Below are positions 6,350 through 64,000 of a DNA stretch of 64,000 nt, in pieces (position 1 is the stretch's first letter; the number at the start of each line of letters is the position of its first letter). Position numbers and translations under genes: made by a program. The stretch spans positions 3,584,001 through 3,648,000 of the forward strand of contig OY969474.1 of NCBI GenBank assembly GCA_963700145.1, read 5' to 3'. Below the pieces are notes generated by a model. The model was given only the letters and a program-made list of their open reading frames with translations. It had not been told where the DNA came from and ran no database searches. This stretch comes from an uncultured Acidobacteriota bacterium. GTDB lineage: Bacteria > Acidobacteriota > Thermoanaerobaculia > Multivoradales > UBA5704.

Positions 6350-10064
<3,715 letters not shown>

Positions 10065-10149: not shown

Positions 10150-11004
10150 TCATCCGTACAGCTTCCGCGCCGCGTCCTCGGCGGGACGGGACGCGCCGTA
10201 GCTCTCTTCGGCGGCCGGGAAGCGGCCGGCGCGGACGTCGGCGGCGAAGCGGGCGATCGCCTCGCGCGAGGCGAGCCCGAGCTCGGCGTAGCGGCGCACG
10301 AAGCGCGGCGCGATCCGCTCCTCCAGCCCCAGGAGGTCGTGGTAGACGAGCACCTGTCCGTCGCAGTGCGGGCCGGCGCCGATGCCGATCGTCGGGATGG
10401 CGAGCCGCTCCGAGACCTCGGCCGCCAGGCCGGTCGGCACGCACTCGAGGACCAGCGAGAAGGCACCGGCGGCCTCCAGCTCGGCGGCGGCGGCGAGGAT
10501 CGCCTCGGCCGCCCCGGCCTCGCGCCCCTGCACCTTGTAGCCGCCGAGGCGGTGGAGCGACTGCGGCGTCAGGCCCAGGTGGGCCATGACCGGCACCTCG
10601 GCCTCGACCAGCGCCGCCACCACCTCCGGCCGCCCGCCCTCGATCTTGACCGCCTGGGCGCCCCCCTCCTTGACGAAGCGGATGGCGTTGGCGACCGCCT
10701 GCGCGGGCCCCAGGTGGAAGGAGCCAAACGGCATGTCGGCGACCAGCAGCGCGCGCTCGACGCCGCGGCGCACGGCGCGCACGTGGTGGAGCATCTCGTC
10801 CATGGTGACGGCGAGGGTGTCGGGGTGGCCGAGCACCACCATGGCGAGCGAGTCGCCGACCAGCACGACGTCGGCGCCGCCGGCGTCGGCCGTGCGCGCC
10901 TGCGGGAAGTCGTAGGCGGTGACCATGACCAGGCGCTCGCCGCGCCGCGGGGCGGCGGTGACCCAGGGGACGGTGATCGTCTTGGGGCTCGCTTCGGGGG
11001 CCAT
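10150..11004 (-). CDS. panB: 3-methyl-2-oxobutanoate hydroxymethyltransferase
   Basis: MVTAYD, LVGDSLAMV, ADMPFGS, VKIEGG, HLGLTPQS, IGIGAG..DGQVLV. Confidence 0.95.
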   Translation of the reverse strand: MAPEASPKTITVPWVTAAPRRGERLVMVTAYDFPQARTADAGGADVVLVGDSLAMVVLGHPDTLAVTMDEMLHHVRAVRRGVERALLVADMPFGSFHLGPAQAVANAIRFVKEGGAQAVKIEGGRPEVVAALVEAEVPVMAHLGLTPQSLHRLGGYKVQGREAGAAEAILAAAAELEAAGAFSLVLECVPTGLAAEVSERLAIPTIGIGAGPHCDGQVLVYHDLLGLEERIAPRFVRRYAELGLASREAIARFAADVRAGRFPAAEESYGASRPAEDAARKLYG

Positions 11005-56953: not shown

Positions 56954-57068
56954 GTCATCCCGAGCGAGAGCGAGGGATCTGGGCGGGGGGCGGTGCGTGA
57001 AAGGCGCGGGTCCAGAAGGTGTCCGCGCCACCCCTGCCCCCAGATCCCTCGCTCTCGCTCGGGATGAC
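56954..57068. repeat. GTCATYC-family palindromic repeat pair (copy D)
   Basis: GTCATCCCGAGCGAGAGCGAGGGATCTGGG ... CCCAGATCCCTCGCTCTCGCTCGGGATGAC. Confidence 0.85.
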
Positions 57069-58841
57069 ATGCGAGGCGGGCCGCCGCGGCCCCGGCCCCG
57101 GCTTTTTTCCCACCCGATCTTCCTCGCCCTCCTCCTCGCCCTCCCCCTCTTCGCCTGGGGCATCTCCTGGGGTCTCCCCAGCCGCCTCGGCTGGGCGGGC
57201 GACGAGATCATGCCGCGCGCCGTCGAGCAGGCCGCGCGCCGCGGCTTCGCCGGCGGCTGGCACACCAAGTACCCGCCCGTCCACTACATGGTCCTCGCCG
57301 CCCTCCACGCGCCGGTCCGCGCGCTCGCCGGCGACGACGTCTCGCCCGCCGAGCTCAATCACCGCCTGATCCTCGCCAGCCGCTGGCTCTCGGTCCTGAT
57401 GGCCCTCGGCGCCGTCTGGGCCGTCTACCGCGCGGCGCGCGAGCTGACCGACCGCCGCGGCGCCGCCCTCGCCGCCCTCGCCGTCGCGCTCGCGCCGCCC
57501 TTCGTCTACTTCGCCAAGACCGCCAACCCCGAGATGCCGATGCTCTTCTGGCTGGCGCTCTCCCTTTGGCTCTACCTCCGCGTCCTCCGCCGCCACCGCC
57601 TGCGCGACTGGCTCCTCCTCGCCGCCACTGCCGCACTCGCCGTCGGCTCCAAAGACCAGGCCTACGGCTTCTACCTCCTTGCTCCCCTCGCCCTCCTCCC
57701 CTCCCTAGCCCGCCACCGCCGCGCCGAAGGCAAGCCCGGCGGCCCAAGCACCCTCCTCGACCGCCGCGTCCTCCTAGCCGTCGCCGCCGGCCTCGTCGCC
57801 TTCGCTCTAGCCTTCAATCTGCCGGCGAACTGGCAAGGCTTCCAGCGCCATCTCAACACCCTAACCGGCGCCGGCGCCGCCTCCGAAGAGGCCCAGGAGT
57901 ACCCAGCCACCGTAGCCGGCCACCTAGCCAACCTGACCCAGAACCTCCGCCACCTGGTTTTCTGCCTAGGTGGGCCCCTCTTCGTCCTGACCGTGGCAGG
58001 CGCCGCCTTCGCCCTAGCCCGCCCCCGCGACCCGAGTCACCGCCGTCTCCTAGCCCTCCTCCTCCTAAGCCTCTCCTACACCGCCACCTTCCTAGCCCCT
58101 ATCCTTTTCAGCCGCGACCGCTACACCCTCCCGCTAGCCCTAGTCCTAACCCCCTGCGCCGGCGCACTTCTCACGCGCCTCCTCGCCAAGTCCCGCGGCT
58201 CAACTCACTACCTCCTCGCCGCCGCCCTGACCATCGTCTTCGCCTGGAGCGCCCTCCGCGCTGTCTCCGTCAACCGCCGCATGACCCACGACTCCCGCTA
58301 CCAAGCCGAGACCTGGCTCTCCACCCACCCCGGCCGCCCCATCGCCATAGGCCGCCCCAAACACGTCCCCCGCATCGCCCGCGTCGATTGGCGCAAAGTC
58401 CACCGCGCAGAAAACGCCCGGCACGTAGGCCGGGCGCTACGCAACGCCGACTACATCGTCATCAACGTAACCGACCTCCGCACCCCAGCCGAGCGACGCG
58501 TCTACGAAGAACTCCTCTCCGGCAACCTCGGCTACCACCTAGCCCATCGCTTCCGTTGGACCTCGAAGTGGGACGTCCTCTCAACGCGATGTGTCCTCAG
58601 CACCCTCGACCTGGTGAACCCGCACCTAGCCGTTTTTTCCAGGCAGGAGAAAACGGTGCCGGGCGGTTCGCGGGGTGCTCCTCCGGGGAGCTCTTCGCAA
58701 GCGCCGGCAATGTTCCTCGCAGGCCGCAGTCGATCCGGCGCGCAGCGAAGCGCAGCCGCGCGCCTCCCCGCGGCAGTCCTCTTGGCGCGCGGCGGTCCCC
58801 GGAGGAGCACCCCGCGAACCGCCCTCTCGCTAACCCCTTAG
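57069..58841 (+). CDS. ArnT/PMT-like (GT-C) membrane glycosyltransferase
   Basis: WGLP..WAGDE, YPPVHY, multiple TMs, RDRYTLPL; 3' end runs through a structured repeat. Confidence 0.8.
   Translation: MRGGPPRPRPRLFSHPIFLALLLALPLFAWGISWGLPSRLGWAGDEIMPRAVEQAARRGFAGGWHTKYPPVHYMVLAALHAPVRALAGDDVSPAELNHRLILASRWLSVLMALGAVWAVYRAARELTDRRGAALAALAVALAPPFVYFAKTANPEMPMLFWLALSLWLYLRVLRRHRLRDWLLLAATAALAVGSKDQAYGFYLLAPLALLPSLARHRRAEGKPGGPSTLLDRRVLLAVAAGLVAFALAFNLPANWQGFQRHLNTLTGAGAASEEAQEYPATVAGHLANLTQNLRHLVFCLGGPLFVLTVAGAAFALARPRDPSHRRLLALLLLSLSYTATFLAPILFSRDRYTLPLALVLTPCAGALLTRLLAKSRGSTHYLLAAALTIVFAWSALRAVSVNRRMTHDSRYQAETWLSTHPGRPIAIGRPKHVPRIARVDWRKVHRAENARHVGRALRNADYIVINVTDLRTPAERRVYEELLSGNLGYHLAHRFRWTSKWDVLSTRCVLSTLDLVNPHLAVFSRQEKTVPGGSRGAPPGSSSQAPAMFLAGRSRSGAQRSAAARLPAAVLLARGGPRRSTPRTALSLTP
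58661..58824. repeat. 164-bp multi-stem element with perfect 29-bp terminal inverted repeat (copy 1)
   Basis: 58661-58689 is the exact reverse complement of 58796-58824; internal stems and GCGAAGC. Confidence 0.85.
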
Positions 58842-59575
58842 AGGAAGAGCCCCTGAATGGTCCCTTGGATTTCTTTCGCTTTTTGGTAGGGATCAGAAGC
58901 CTTCCGAATCGGCCGCCCCACCACGATGTAATCCGCCCCCGACAAAAACGCCTCCTCCACGCTAACCACCCGCTTCTGGTCATCCACAGCCCGGTTCTCC
59001 ACCGGCCGAATCCCCGGCACAACAACCAGAAGCTTCTCCCCAAGCTCCTCCCGCAGAGCCCGAGCCTCCAACCCAGAAGCCACCACCCCATCACACCCGA
59101 TCGCCAACGCCCGCCGCGCCCGCGACAACACCAACTCCTCCACGTCCACCCGAAACCCCAGATCCTCCAGGTCCCCCCGATCCAAGCTAGTCAGCGCCGT
59201 AACCGCCAGCACCTTCAACCCCTCCCCCCGCTCCCGGCAAGCCGCCTCCAGCATCCCGTCGTTCCCGTGCACCGTCGTCAGCGCGATCCCCCGCCCCGCC
59301 AGCCGCCGCACCGCCGCCCCCACCGTCTCCGGCACGTCGAACAGCTTGAAATCCGCGAACACCTTCGCGCCGCGCCCGTGCAGCCAGTCGATCAGCGCGA
59401 ACGCCTCGCCCGTCATGAACAGCTCCAGCCCCACCTTGTAGAACGACACAGCCTCGCGCAACGTCTCGACGAGCCGCCGCGCCTCCGCCACTTCGGGCAC
59501 GTCGAGGGCGAAGATCAACCGCTCTTCGGGGGGGATCTCCTTGGTCGAGAGGAAGTGCGGATCGGGCGCGCTCAC
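58838..59575 (-). CDS. pyrF: Orotidine-5'-phosphate decarboxylase
   Basis: RLIFALD, YKVGLELF, DFKLFDVPETV (DxKxxD), VPGIRP, DDQKR, VVGRPI. Confidence 0.95.
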   Translation of the reverse strand: MSAPDPHFLSTKEIPPEERLIFALDVPEVAEARRLVETLREAVSFYKVGLELFMTGEAFALIDWLHGRGAKVFADFKLFDVPETVGAAVRRLAGRGIALTTVHGNDGMLEAACRERGEGLKVLAVTALTSLDRGDLEDLGFRVDVEELVLSRARRALAIGCDGVVASGLEARALREELGEKLLVVVPGIRPVENRAVDDQKRVVSVEEAFLSGADYIVVGRPIRKASDPYQKAKEIQGTIQGLFL

Positions 59576-61687: not shown

Positions 61688-63040
61688 GTGACGCGTGAGC
61701 GGCACCCGCCGCGCGAGGACCTCGAGCGCTTCCTGCGCGGCGAGCTGACGGCGGCCGAGAGCAAGGGCCTGGTCCGCCACCTCCTCGCCGGCTGCGCCGA
61801 CTGCCTCGGCGAGACGCGGCGCCTCTGGGGCGGCCGGCGGGGCGCGGCCGGCGCACCGGAGAGCGCGGCGCCGCCCGCCGGAGTCTACGGCGAGCTCTTC
61901 CGCAAGCTCTTCGCGCAAGGCCCGGCGCGCGAGGCGGCGGTGGCGCGCGACCTCGAGCGGGCGCCGCGCCTCGCCGCGGACCTCCTCCGCCACCCGCACG
62001 CGCGGCGCCTGACGCTCGTCGCCAACGCCGAGCGCTTCCGCAGCGTCGGCCTCTGCGAGCACCTCCTGGAGTCGGCGGCCGCTCTCTGGCGGGAGGACCC
62101 GCCGGCCAGCGCCGAGCTCGCCGAGGTGGCCGGCGCCGTGGCGCGGCGCCTCGACCCGCGCTGCGCCGGGCCGTCGCTCGCCGCCAGCCTCGAGGGGCGG
62201 GCCTGGGCCTACCGCGGCAACGCCCTGCGCCTCGCAGGCGACTTCGCCGTCGCCGAGGAGGCGCTGGCCCGCGCCGAGCCGCTCGTCGAGCACGGCAGCG
62301 GCGACCCGCTGGAGCGCGCCGAGCTCCACGCCCTGCGCGCCGCCCTCGCCGCCGACCGCGGCCGCCCCGCCGCCGCCCTCGCCCTCTACGACCGCGCCGC
62401 CCAGCTCTACCGCGCCCTCGCCGAGCGCCACGCCCTCGGCCGCACCCTGCTCGAAAAGAGCGCCGTCCCCGCGCCCGCCCTCGCCGAGGCGGCGCGCCTC
62501 GCCCTCCTGCGCGAGGGTGTCGGCCTCCTCGACGACCGCCTAGAGCCCCACCTCGCCGCCGCCGCCCACCACCGCCTAGTCGCCGGCCTCTTAGACGCCG
62601 GCCACCCCGGCGAGGCCCTCCTCTACCTCCAGAAAGCCCGGCTCCTCGACCGCAAGCAGGGCGACCGCGCAGGCCTCCTCCGCCTCCTGCGCCTGGAAGG
62701 CAAGATCGCCGAATCCCTGGACCGCCCCGAAGACGCCGAGCGCCTCCTCCTAGAAGCCTGGATCGGCCTCGTCGGCCTCAAGCTCGGCCAAGACGCCGCC
62801 ACCGTCACCCTCGACCTCGCCCGCCTCTACGCCCGCAACGGCCGCATCGCCGAGGCCCGCGGCTTGGCCCTCAAACTCTCCCCCCTCTTCCACGCCGAGG
62901 GCCTAGACCGCGGCGCCATCGTCGGCCTAGTCGTCCTCCGCCGCCTCCTGGAGACCGAATCCGCCAGCCCCCAGTTCCTAGCCGAGCTAGTCGGTTACTT
63001 CCGCCGCCCAACCCCGGCGCAGCTCCGCCAAGCCAGCTAA
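61688..63040 (+). CDS. TPR-repeat protein with N-terminal zf-HC2-like motif
   Basis: HP....LERF..HLLAGCADC; AWAYRGNALRLAGD helical repeats. Confidence 0.75.
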   Translation: MTRERHPPREDLERFLRGELTAAESKGLVRHLLAGCADCLGETRRLWGGRRGAAGAPESAAPPAGVYGELFRKLFAQGPAREAAVARDLERAPRLAADLLRHPHARRLTLVANAERFRSVGLCEHLLESAAALWREDPPASAELAEVAGAVARRLDPRCAGPSLAASLEGRAWAYRGNALRLAGDFAVAEEALARAEPLVEHGSGDPLERAELHALRAALAADRGRPAAALALYDRAAQLYRALAERHALGRTLLEKSAVPAPALAEAARLALLREGVGLLDDRLEPHLAAAAHHRLVAGLLDAGHPGEALLYLQKARLLDRKQGDRAGLLRLLRLEGKIAESLDRPEDAERLLLEAWIGLVGLKLGQDAATVTLDLARLYARNGRIAEARGLALKLSPLFHAEGLDRGAIVGLVVLRRLLETESASPQFLAELVGYFRRPTPAQLRQAS

Positions 63041-63067
63041 CAGGTCTTTGGATGCTGGGTGGGGGAA

Positions 63068-63232
63068 GCCCGGGGGTCGGGTGCCCCCGGCGGGAACCTC
63101 TGAGCGAGCGCCGGGCAACGCCCGCTGCATTCGACATCGACCCCGGCGCAAAGCGAAGCGGAGGCGCGAGCCCACCCCCCGCAATCCACAAGGCTCGCGC
63201 CGGTTCCCGCCGGGGGCACCCGACCCCCGGGC
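63068..63232. repeat. 165-bp multi-stem element with perfect 31-bp terminal inverted repeat (copy 2)
   Basis: 63068-63098 is the exact reverse complement of 63202-63232; same internal architecture as copy 1. Confidence 0.85.
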
Positions 63233-63258
63233 GGGGCGGGGGGTCTTAGTTCCTTATC

Positions 63259-64000
63259 TCAGCCGGCCTGCTTCTTCTCCCACTCCTCCTTAGTCATCCA
63301 CTCCACCACCCCCCGCTTCTTGAGCTCCTCCGCCCGCGCAAACCCCGCCTCCAACCGCCCCTCCAGCACCTCAGCAAGCTCCACCTGCGACTGCGTAGGC
63401 CTCCCCTCGTAACTGTTCACCGCCCCGTACAGCAACCCCAACTTCTCCCGCAACTGCTCCTCCCCCGACAACCACCCCCCCGCCGACGTCGCCACCAGCT
63501 CCTTCCGCAGCCCCTCCCAATCCGCCGCCAGCTTCGTCGCCTTCTTCTTGTCCGCCTGCTCCTTGGCGTCCGTCACCGCGTCCGCCAGGTACGTCAGCCG
63601 CCCGAGCATCTCGTAGAGCCGCCACACCAGCTTCTCCTGCTCCTTGCGGTCCGCGTCGGCGTGGCGTGACCGCGGGTCGGCCACCAGCTCCACCTTCCCC
63701 GGGTACGTCTGGTCCCCCTTGACCACCTTGAACGTGTAGGCGCCGAGCGGCACTCGCGGCCCCAGCATCGCGTAACTGTTGAGCACCAGCGAGTTCGCCG
63801 GCGGCATCTTCGGGGGCTTGGCGCGCATCGGCCAGGACACCCGGTTGATCCCCTTCCGCTTGCCGCCGGGGAGCGTCGTCACCAGCTTCCCGTCGGCGTC
63901 GTAGACCTCGACCTTGAGGTCGCCGAAGAGGTGCCGCTTCTTGAGGTAGTAGACGATCGTCGCCTCCTCCGGCGGGTTGAAGGCCACGAACTCGTCGTCG
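63259..64000 (-). CDS. C-terminus of a large protein, likely BNR/VPS10 glycosyl-hydrolase-like (partial)
   Basis: NPP.EATIVYYL, KGINRVSW, GPRVPLGAY, DPR, PTQSQ; frame open to the window edge. Confidence 0.7.
   Translation of the reverse strand, partial: DDEFVAFNPPEEATIVYYLKKRHLFGDLKVEVYDADGKLVTTLPGGKRKGINRVSWPMRAKPPKMPPANSLVLNSYAMLGPRVPLGAYTFKVVKGDQTYPGKVELVADPRSRHADADRKEQEKLVWRLYEMLGRLTYLADAVTDAKEQADKKKATKLAADWEGLRKELVATSAGGWLSGEEQLREKLGLLYGAVNSYEGRPTQSQVELAEVLEGRLEAGFARAEELKKRGVVEWMTKEEWEKKQAG

Follow-up and report, generated by a model that had tools for sequence, protein, structure and literature searches.

Why would a bacterial chromosome lose guanine from one strand over some 2.5 kb, through two genes read in opposite directions, and return to an even composition on either side? 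The question is raised by a locus in a 64,000-nt stretch of contig OY969474.1 (positions 3,584,001 to 3,648,000; hereafter the window, with positions counted from its first letter), which is part of the single-contig genome of an uncultured Acidobacteriota bacterium from soil (G000; 5,455,767 bp, 71.5% G+C, 95% complete). Where a gene for a GT-C-type glycosyltransferase on the + strand meets a convergent pyrF on the - strand, the window carries a structured element at 58661-58824 (+ strand), copy A of a repeat of approximately 135 nt that we call family 1. An initial annotation had described the + strand as G-poor on both sides of this element and had proposed a local, oriented mutational process centered on it. 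We analyzed this compositional halo at the locus, across the genome, and in relatives. The halo is confirmed as real, genome-wide, and locked to the orientation of the element, and it is seen in several lineages and in two element families. Its cause is a matter of probability, and the competing explanations are weighed in the Discussion.

Results

The halo at the GT-C/pyrF locus

The base counts that had drawn attention to the locus were exact on recount: 32 C and 9 G at 58021-58080, 33 C and 9 G at 59101-59160, and 21 of each in a control segment at 9601-9660. In 200-bp windows, GC skew runs from -0.2 to -0.5 over approximately 57000-58600 and 58800-59500, and is about zero across copy A and past both edges of the halo. 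The left (5') part, at 57000-58600 (skew -0.2 to -0.5), where the + strand is G-poor and C-rich, lies inside the + strand glycosyltransferase gene; the right (3') part, at 58840-59500 (skew -0.28 to -0.50), where the + strand is again G-poor, lies inside the - strand pyrF. The halo had been placed at 57600-59340. Its existence stands, but its real span is wider, approximately 57000-59500. Genome-wide, skew in 1-kb windows has a standard deviation of 0.066, and |0.25| is exceeded in 33 of 10,910 windows, which merge into 22 regions; the longest of these is the one in the window (57001-59500, 2.5 kb, skew -0.308).

The two genes remain intact, as had been claimed. A PMT_2 domain is matched in the glycosyltransferase reading frame (56997-58841, + strand), and an OMPdecase domain is matched in pyrF (58838-59575, - strand), a full-length gene for orotidine 5'-phosphate decarboxylase that is colinear with 11 orthologues in an alignment. 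Codon usage carries the mark of the halo in the way the initial annotation had indicated. The third-position GC skew of the glycosyltransferase gene is -0.55 and 15 of its 91 leucine codons are CTA, all within 57705-58539, and the codons of pyrF include nine TTG and four GTT. The listed glycosyltransferase frame crosses the element before its stop at 58841, and the part of the frame that holds copy A (58620-58841) would encode approximately 70 C-terminal residues. In G002, a genome of a sister species that lacks the element here, the same gene stops within a few codons of the pyrF stop.

Halos across the genome

Iterated nhmmer searches recovered 40 full copies of family 1 and one partial copy in G000. 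Copy A has the best score in the genome (103.5 bits). The window holds a second copy, copy B, at 63080-63212 on the + strand (genome 3647080-3647212; 82.6 bits), and its halo, at 62200-63700, agrees in sign with the halo of copy A, the left side having a skew of -0.18 to -0.32 and the right side one of -0.35 to -0.56 (oriented flank skews of -0.25 and -0.22). We turned all 40 copies to one orientation and took as the top strand the one that carries the top sequence of the element. In this aggregate, top-strand G is 0.26-0.29 within approximately ±700 bp, as against 0.365 far away; over the same distance C rises from 0.36 to 0.44 and A from 0.133 to 0.16, and T is flat. Composition is back at baseline by 1.0-1.5 kb from the element.

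Individual copies mostly follow the aggregate. Oriented skew is -0.1 or lower in 29 of 40 left flanks and in 29 of 40 right flanks, and copies that seem halo-free in wide windows mostly have a narrow halo of a few hundred bases. When skew itself was the starting point, 57 regions had |skew| above 0.22 in 800-bp windows, and 29 of them lie at a family-1 copy, all with the predicted sign and none with the opposite one. A genome-wide comparison of skew with element position and orientation had been suggested as a test of the original claim. The two are correlated across the 40 copies, and the decay over about ±1 kb, together with the orientation-locked sign, upholds the view of a local oriented process centered on the element. 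One pair of divergent family-1 copies, 100 bp apart (genome 4081070-4081432), has a strong halo only outside its minus copy, as if the two polarities canceled on the other side.

Gene and replication direction

Genes beside the copies, called with a crude caller based on G+C at third codon positions (GC3), were compared according to whether they run with the element or against it. For co-oriented genes, the frequency of top-strand G at third positions goes down from 0.41 to 0.17-0.21 within halos; for anti-oriented genes, it goes down from 0.54 to 0.24-0.35. In both orientations C goes up, A moves from about 0.027 to 0.07-0.13, and T stays flat. Third codon positions account for most of the loss of G. 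Flank skews average -0.15/-0.19 for co-oriented and -0.13/-0.17 for anti-oriented genes, so that the sign on the top strand is equal in the two classes and the independence from gene orientation that had been proposed holds. Because the top-strand bias is the same in both, codon usage shifts in opposite ways: in halos, GCC stands at 0.78, GGC at 0.86, and CTA at 0.09 in co-oriented genes, and GCG at 0.73, GGG at 0.64, TTG at 0.18, and GTT at 0.10 in anti-oriented genes. Amino acid usage moves as well, with factors for co- and anti-oriented genes, respectively, of 0.81 and 1.35 for Gly, 0.97 and 1.31 for Val, 1.29 and 0.86 for Thr, and 1.07 and 0.82 for Pro.

Replication direction does not account for the sign either. 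Copies at 3700754 (minus) and 3740675 (plus), about 40 kb apart on the same side of dnaA (3.471 Mb), have halos of opposite genomic sign, as do the copies at 2318245 (plus) and 2321912 (minus), the spacings of such pairs being in the range of 4-40 kb. That copies in opposite orientation on the same side of dnaA carry opposite signs supports the independence of the halo from replication direction. No clear cumulative (replication) GC skew is present in G000; the switch in gene-strand bias falls near 2.6-2.9 Mb, whereas dnaA lies at 3.471 Mb.

Strand skew is usually explained by damage to the strand that is more often single-stranded, and replication- or transcription-associated skew resembles the halo in that one strand is G+T-rich and the other C+A-rich, mostly at third positions. 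The halo differs in following the orientation of a 135-nt element over approximately ±1 kb, rather than replication or genes, and in being several-fold stronger than any other skew in G000, where replication skew is almost nil. Its sign is not constant within a replichore, as that of replication-associated skew is, and does not follow the coding strand, as transcription or codon-usage asymmetry does.

Empty sites and independent assemblies

A comparison of pyrF with relatives that lack the element had also been proposed. Over the whole gene, coding-strand GC3 skew is -0.06 to -0.39 in seven other genera. Over codons 83-205, it is +0.49 to +0.94 in the four genomes of the same genus that carry the element there, and +0.74 to +0.86 in the pyrF of the window. 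The GT-C/pyrF synteny is also present in genus g6, where the element is missing, and skew there stays within ±0.11 across the locus.

The sister-species genome G002 has four element matches, two of them weak, and its halos are weak. It is empty at three further loci, where its flanks have skews of +0.01/-0.11, -0.01/-0.07, and -0.04; at the orthologous flanks in G000, with the element present, the values are -0.13/-0.21, -0.20/-0.30, and -0.24. In total, halos are lacking at three of the four empty orthologous loci in G002. The fourth, pyrF, is taken up in the Discussion.

The possibility of a sequencing or assembly artefact of G000 was raised from the start, and it has next to no probability, being already refuted by halos that persist in separately assembled records, with the reading frames intact as well. 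Around orthologous and other copies in metagenome-assembled genome (MAG) records of related species, 27 of 38 left flanks of at least 600 nt have an oriented skew of -0.10 or lower, and the sole left flank at +0.10 or above faces an inverted neighboring copy. Contigs of soil metagenomes from other runs match pieces of the halos, either with 0 differences or as relatives diverged by 5-9%, and locus-specific halos recur in metagenome contigs.

Substitutions on terminal branches

To polarize substitutions, 11 loci were aligned between G000 and two other records, and a change seen in just one of the two closest lineages was placed on the branch of that lineage. A further locus, which has two inverted copies, was left out, and two weak-halo loci were tallied apart. 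The halo zone was defined as 60-900 bp from the element and the outside as beyond 1.5 kb, with changes written in the notation of the element strand. On the G000 branch, the halo zone (2835 G and 4795 C sites) has 93 G>C to 52 C>G, 74 G>A to 60 C>T, and 48 C>A to 12 G>T changes. Beyond 1.5 kb the same pairs are balanced, at 36 to 42, 25 to 24, and 4 to 6. The branch of the other close lineage (the DATLOC record) shows the same direction more weakly in the halo zone, with pairs of 40 to 28, 39 to 40, and 27 to 7. Total substitutions number 402 at 10,425 sites in the halo zone versus 159 at 8,526 sites outside.

The bias is also present at fourfold-degenerate sites, which were tallied in nine halo loci (ancestral C 969, G 269, A 65, T 26). 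In G000, G>C occurred at 33 of 269 sites versus 18 of 969 for C>G (odds ratio 7.4, p = 1.6e-11), and in the second lineage there were 10 G>C versus 11 C>G changes (odds ratio 3.4, p = 0.007). G>A (12/269) likewise exceeded C>T (12/969; p = 0.002). C>A was approximately 10-fold up, with 16 of 969 in halos versus 1 of 662 outside, and was concentrated within ±500 bp of the element; G>T, at 1 of 269, was not raised. Relative to rates outside, G>C is approximately 3-4 fold up and C>G approximately 2 fold down. Terminal-branch changes are therefore directionally biased, with G>C, G>A, and C>A raised, which supports a halo process that is still operating. Exchanges between G and C are the commonest fixed change outside halos too (78 of 159 on the G000 branch), so the dominance of G>C probably comes from the genome's filter against A and T at third positions.

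On this spectrum, deamination of C on the minus strand, the first of the causes that the initial annotation had put forward, cannot serve as the main cause. The dominant change is G>C rather than G>A, and C gains approximately 0.07 where A gains approximately 0.03; a reading by deamination only is also at odds with the raised C>A and with the lowered per-site C>G. Runs of C, which normally occur at 0.56 of the expectation from shuffled sequences, are at 0.89 in halos. In 42 kb of halo, the bottom strand holds 39 G-run motifs of the quadruplex type, as against 5 in control DNA, and the halo composition by itself gives 41.6 in shuffles; selection for G-quadruplexes was rejected on this ground, as the motif count equals the shuffle expectation. 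Both counts look like random input rather than design.

Element families and control repeats

The inverted repeat of copy A consists of 38-nt arms (58661-58698 and 58787-58824) that are 89% complementary and enclose an 88-nt interior. Folded as RNA it reaches -127.1 kcal/mol (z -7.9), and the other strand folded as DNA has a z of -8.0. The consensus fold of family 1 is a three-way junction, with an outer stem and a conserved asymmetric core that contains two inner helices. The outer stem has approximately 27 pairs of hypervariable sequence, yet 35-40 of the 40 copies are paired at every position, and GC, CG, TA, and AT pairs all occur within single columns, as expected of compensated changes. 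Cells of the G-T type (14) are not clearly commoner than those of the A-C type (10), and these counts do not tell apart RNA and DNA as the folded form, or the strand that folds. Conservation between species and the compensated changes in the stem suggest that the element has a function. A scan for promoter and terminator consensus sequences at the element found none, and a search of Rfam 15 found no family, the best match being MIR1437 with 20.8 bits against a gathering score of 168.

Family 1 has a narrow distribution. Among relatives it is matched only in the same genus, one genus of the Thermoanaerobaculia, where its copies sit at orthologous sites across species, consistent with vertical inheritance. 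A metagenome scan returned orthologues from the same genus only and no new lineages. The pattern of the core was found in four Thermoanaerobaculia MAG records, and elsewhere only as fragments of at most 51 nt. Ten pattern loci outside the Thermoanaerobaculia, seven with matches of at most 51 nt and three with none, have no halo (0/10). Within G000, 12 of the 40 copies fall within 2.62-3.34 Mb. One copy (1644502-1644639, minus strand) lies immediately upstream of the only MutL gene (domain match at 1643485-1643814, minus strand) and shares its orientation, and another, at 1639714, is on the other side of that gene; this arrangement may be chance.

A second element family was identified from halos that had no family-1 copy. 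Two long orphan halos, with centers at approximately 4,624,850 and 5,152,230, contain copies of a repeat of approximately 188 nt (4624763-4624952 and 5152144-5152327), of which there are 20 copies in all. It is built like family 1, with a variable outer stem and some common short motifs (GCCGGCAAC, GCAGTCCAC, and GCGAAGCGC), and its loci match no Rfam family. Four diverged copies have halos of -0.18 to -0.35 with the polarity of family 1, and their stems show compensated changes. The other 16 are near-identical, have almost no halo, lie in unskewed DNA, and often adjoin the ends of another repeat, repA; their similarity suggests that they are young, the product of a recent burst.

Other repeats in the genome have no such effect. 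The palindromic hairpin repeat repA (approximately 115 nt, 99 copies) has no halo, with oriented means of -0.009 and -0.021. It is also present across other genera of the family, and one copy lies in the window at 56954-57070, where the left edge of the halo of copy A and the start of the glycosyltransferase gene also fall. A C-rich repeat of approximately 147 nt (18 copies, at 665346, 1825792, 4187612, and 15 further sites) likewise has no halo in its flanks. It was considered as a source of halos, as it lies in three short orphan skew regions, and was rejected, the skew there being that of its own composition.

Two hairpins next to copy A complete the description of the locus. A small A/T-rich inverted repeat with a T run, at 58630-58656 on the + strand, lies directly 5' of the element, and many copies are preceded by similar T-rich stretches; compared with the terminator consensus, this hairpin gave no match. 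Another hairpin, at approximately 58407-58440 within 58392-58478, has a weak match to a CRISPR-DR29-like Rfam family (E 0.67). In one soil run, 58392-58478 has a summed contig depth of approximately 1800, versus tens elsewhere, which suggests a short sequence that is widely repeated in that soil community.

Discussion

Known systems and the search for an enzyme

Several known systems share some features with the elements described here. Like repetitive extragenic palindromes (REPs) and REPINs, family 1 consists of tens of intergenic, G+C-rich hairpin repeats that persist vertically at orthologous sites. REP/REPIN systems are accompanied by a RAYT gene and have conserved palindromic arm units, and we found neither. 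The Y1 transposase/RAYT domain (PF01797) was detected in none of the five genomes of the genus (g1; G000-G004), versus 16 of 16 other relatives searched, and the element exceeds REPs in length and combines an asymmetric, conserved core with hypervariable arms. A full-text literature search, assessed at the level of abstracts, returned no compositional halos around REPs or other bacterial repeats. MITEs (miniature inverted-repeat transposable elements) likewise are short non-coding repeats with inverted ends, and the burst of 16 similar family-2 copies is reminiscent of them. However, in family 1 the inverted ends vary from copy to copy, with paired changes preserving their complementarity, where a MITE would have conserved terminal inverted repeats in common with an autonomous insertion sequence. 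No related transposase was identified, and the genes between and beside paired copies were ordinary housekeeping genes with no partner insertion sequence among them. Comparison of the filled and the empty pyrF site, a single locus, gave no clear target-site duplication.

Two processes of targeted mutagenesis are also worth considering. APOBEC kataegis and vertebrate somatic hypermutation resemble the halo in producing strand-coordinated C>T and C>G changes over approximately 1 kb with a link to excision and resynthesis. The halo lacks a deaminase context, and its sign does not change across the element, in contrast to resection at a double-strand break; it is also slow, selection-filtered, germ-line, bacterial, and seeded by a repeat, rather than the result of single events. 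Neither the TC/CC context nor the C>T dominance of an enzymatic cytosine deaminase was seen, in a comparison whose power is limited by codon constraints. Diversity-generating retroelements (DGRs) are, like the halo, a cis-defined, directional, and local form of bacterial mutagenesis. They change the adenines of a variable repeat by means of a reverse transcriptase and a template repeat. The halo instead changes G and C sites in unrelated flanking genes, with a spectrum of G>C, G>A, and C>A, and reverse transcriptases are not found beside the copies. The three reverse transcriptases of G000 (474447, 1963756, and 4151947) score as retron type XI (RT-protease), UG22, and Drt4/Drt6; they were rejected as the agent, being of defense types and far from any copy. 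The halo is a local directional pressure on sequence evolution of which we found no description in the literature searched.

A proposed strand-asymmetric process at the element

We give about an even chance to the explanation that the element causes the halo after its insertion, by a strand-asymmetric process that takes its polarity from the asymmetric core and involves exposure of the bottom strand or resynthesis against it. The empty sites, the synteny in g6, the difference between diverged and near-identical family-2 copies, and the repA control each favor the element as the cause over the element as a visitor to a preexisting target. In bottom-strand notation, C>G, C>T, and G>T are the classes that go up, and their top-strand complements are unchanged or lower. 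These three are the changes expected from damaged cytosine and oxidized guanine. The top strand would be interrupted repeatedly at or near the element, with a nickase, a structure-specific nuclease, or mismatch-repair-type excision as candidate agents. It would then be excised and resynthesized in both directions over a few hundred to approximately 1000 nt, and the bottom strand, transiently single-stranded, would be the sole template. Lesions of the bottom strand (damaged C, oxidized G) would be copied into mutations. Those of the top strand would be erased, an added step by which this explanation would account for the lowered C>G. The outcome would be filtered by purifying selection and by the strong preference of the genome for G/C at third positions, and because of this filtering, synonymous G>C would dominate the fixed changes. 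Since G>T is not raised and C>A is approximately 10-fold up, lesions on one strand fit the data better than avoidance of G. Nick-primed resynthesis, the second mechanism suggested in the initial annotation, fits the full spectrum better than deamination does; no enzyme or transcript was identified.

A number of observations weigh against this explanation. The nick, the gap, the single-stranded DNA, and the enzyme all belong to an inferred mechanism. Bottom-strand C>T occurs at 2.6-4.2% after all four 5' neighbors and C>G dominates, so a neighbor preference of the deaminase type (APOBEC- or DddA-like) was not seen, in a test whose power is limited by codon constraints. Pooling of both lineages gives a per-site C>G at fourfold positions of 29/1938 in halos, below the 36/1324 outside, which is the signature of a fixation bias and is equally expected under one. 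The overall fourfold rate is up in G000 (7.2% vs 4.6%, p = 0.004) and not in the DATLOC lineage (3.8% vs 3.7%). To our knowledge, bacteria have no established activity that inserts C opposite damaged C or abasic sites, and the G>C excess consequently leans on the fixation filter. Approximately eight of the 40 copies have a weak or narrow halo even though they occur in more than one species; for example, the weak-halo copy at 2996095 has orthologous copies in two other records. The age of the halo alone was rejected as the cause of weak halos for the same reason. An alignment of weak- and strong-halo copies revealed no consistent sequence difference, and the genes beside weak-halo copies (TolQ/TolB, ComEC, QueG, MFS, methyltransferase, HtrA-like protease, SDR, and Endo III-like protein) do not account for the weakness. 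Finally, the pyrF locus of G002 has no element, with 14 nt between the flanking matches, and is nevertheless skewed (-0.30/-0.14). A strand-asymmetric process driven by the element requires that this locus lost its copy secondarily.

Alternative explanations

The same substitution counts can be read as selection. A fixation bias might keep approximately 1 kb on either side G-poor and C+A-rich if the element were an RNA or single-stranded DNA that needs unstructured flanks, whether to load a C-preferring factor such as Rho or to leave no stable fold but the hairpin against a background of 72% G+C. We regard this as unlikely overall, though kept as a rival. Pooled fourfold G>C is 43/538 in halos versus 41/1396 outside, which, with the lowered C>G, has the form that such a bias would give, and we estimate that a scaled advantage of approximately 1.3-2 would yield both the pattern and the fourfold G:C ratio of 269:969. 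Conservation of the element at orthologous sites between species, the stem kept by compensated changes, and the slow formation of halos, with young family-2 copies having none, are all compatible with it. However, G>T would remove G and is not favored, and C>A leaves G unchanged and is approximately 10-fold up. The pressure would also have to override codon preference and shift amino acids in approximately 30 sets of unrelated housekeeping genes, and beside anti-oriented genes it would call for a functional transcript or strand of at least 2 kb antisense to coding, at elements with no promoter or terminator consensus nearby. Avoidance of C runs is relaxed in halos rather than shaped. A different form of fixation bias, to which we attach little weight, is strand-specific biased gene conversion, in which the top strand of the element would be the constant single-stranded donor and C alleles (A alleles less so) would survive over G. 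Mismatch repair sees G/G and G/T well and C/C poorly, as in E. coli MutS and pneumococcal Hex. Gene conversion would explain the G-C transversion pair having the greatest asymmetry of all classes, with the fixation-like rise of G>C and fall of C>G, and the symmetric decay over approximately 1 kb would be a distribution of tract lengths; the genome encodes MutS, MutL, and a ComEC-type competence protein. The rise in C>A lies outside the predictions of gene conversion, though, and 40 copies per genome is far below the number of known uptake sequences. Known oriented signals such as Chi act on one side, and our data hold no evidence of strand-specific recombination.

Heavy bottom-sense transcription through the element, possibly with R-loops, would also expose the bottom strand to C>T and G>T. 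Enrichment of G and T on the bottom strand matches the classical mark of a strand that is not transcribed, an equal sign left and right is what a process passing through the element would leave, and the bottom-strand G-run motifs could stabilize R-loops, although their excess is a matter of composition alone. We nonetheless hold this explanation to be improbable, to much the same degree as gene conversion. It needs promoters approximately 1 kb away inside unrelated coding genes at approximately 30 loci, and no promoter consensus was found. The halo is centered on the element and fades on both sides instead of being bounded by transcription units, and it is equally strong with co-oriented genes, whose own transcription would give the opposite sign. 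The reverse order of events, in which the element enters pre-skewed DNA in a fixed orientation and the halo is a property of the target, is very improbable and already largely refuted. It would fit the skewed, element-free pyrF locus of G002, but the halo is absent at the other three empty loci of that genome and at the syntenic locus of g6, and third-position skew of pyrF is negative in all seven outgroup genera. Long skewed stretches free of an element are almost absent, the long orphan halos being centered on family 2. Directional substitution continues on terminal branches long after insertion, and the young family-2 copies are in unskewed DNA.

Implications

If a strand-asymmetric process at the element is the cause, a bolder version, which we consider possible but on balance doubtful, is that the elements are cis-acting, oriented "mutator beacons," at which a factor reads the core and opens or replaces one strand for approximately 1 kb both ways. 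They might then represent a heritable, strand-specific drive that has shifted the codon usage and amino acids of approximately 30 housekeeping loci, a bacterial, germ-line counterpart of targeted hypermutation; this, too, we offer tentatively.

Local composition in bacteria is normally ascribed to replication, transcription, codon selection, or foreign origin. In G000, the strand composition, codon choice, and amino acid usage of neighboring genes over approximately 2 kb are set by a 135-nt repeat, regardless of the direction in which the genes are read. Halos distort analyses of codon usage, horizontal transfer, and dN/dS, and they can be used as a detector of such elements from sequence only. 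If the cause is selective, the elements would have a nucleic acid function that needs G-poor flanks on the kilobase scale, which is just as unexpected as a mutational one. If the cause is mutational, a site- and strand-specific DNA transaction (nicking, excision, or exposure) would have been operating for the lifetime of the genus, and these genomes would provide a natural system for how single-strand exposure shapes genomes.

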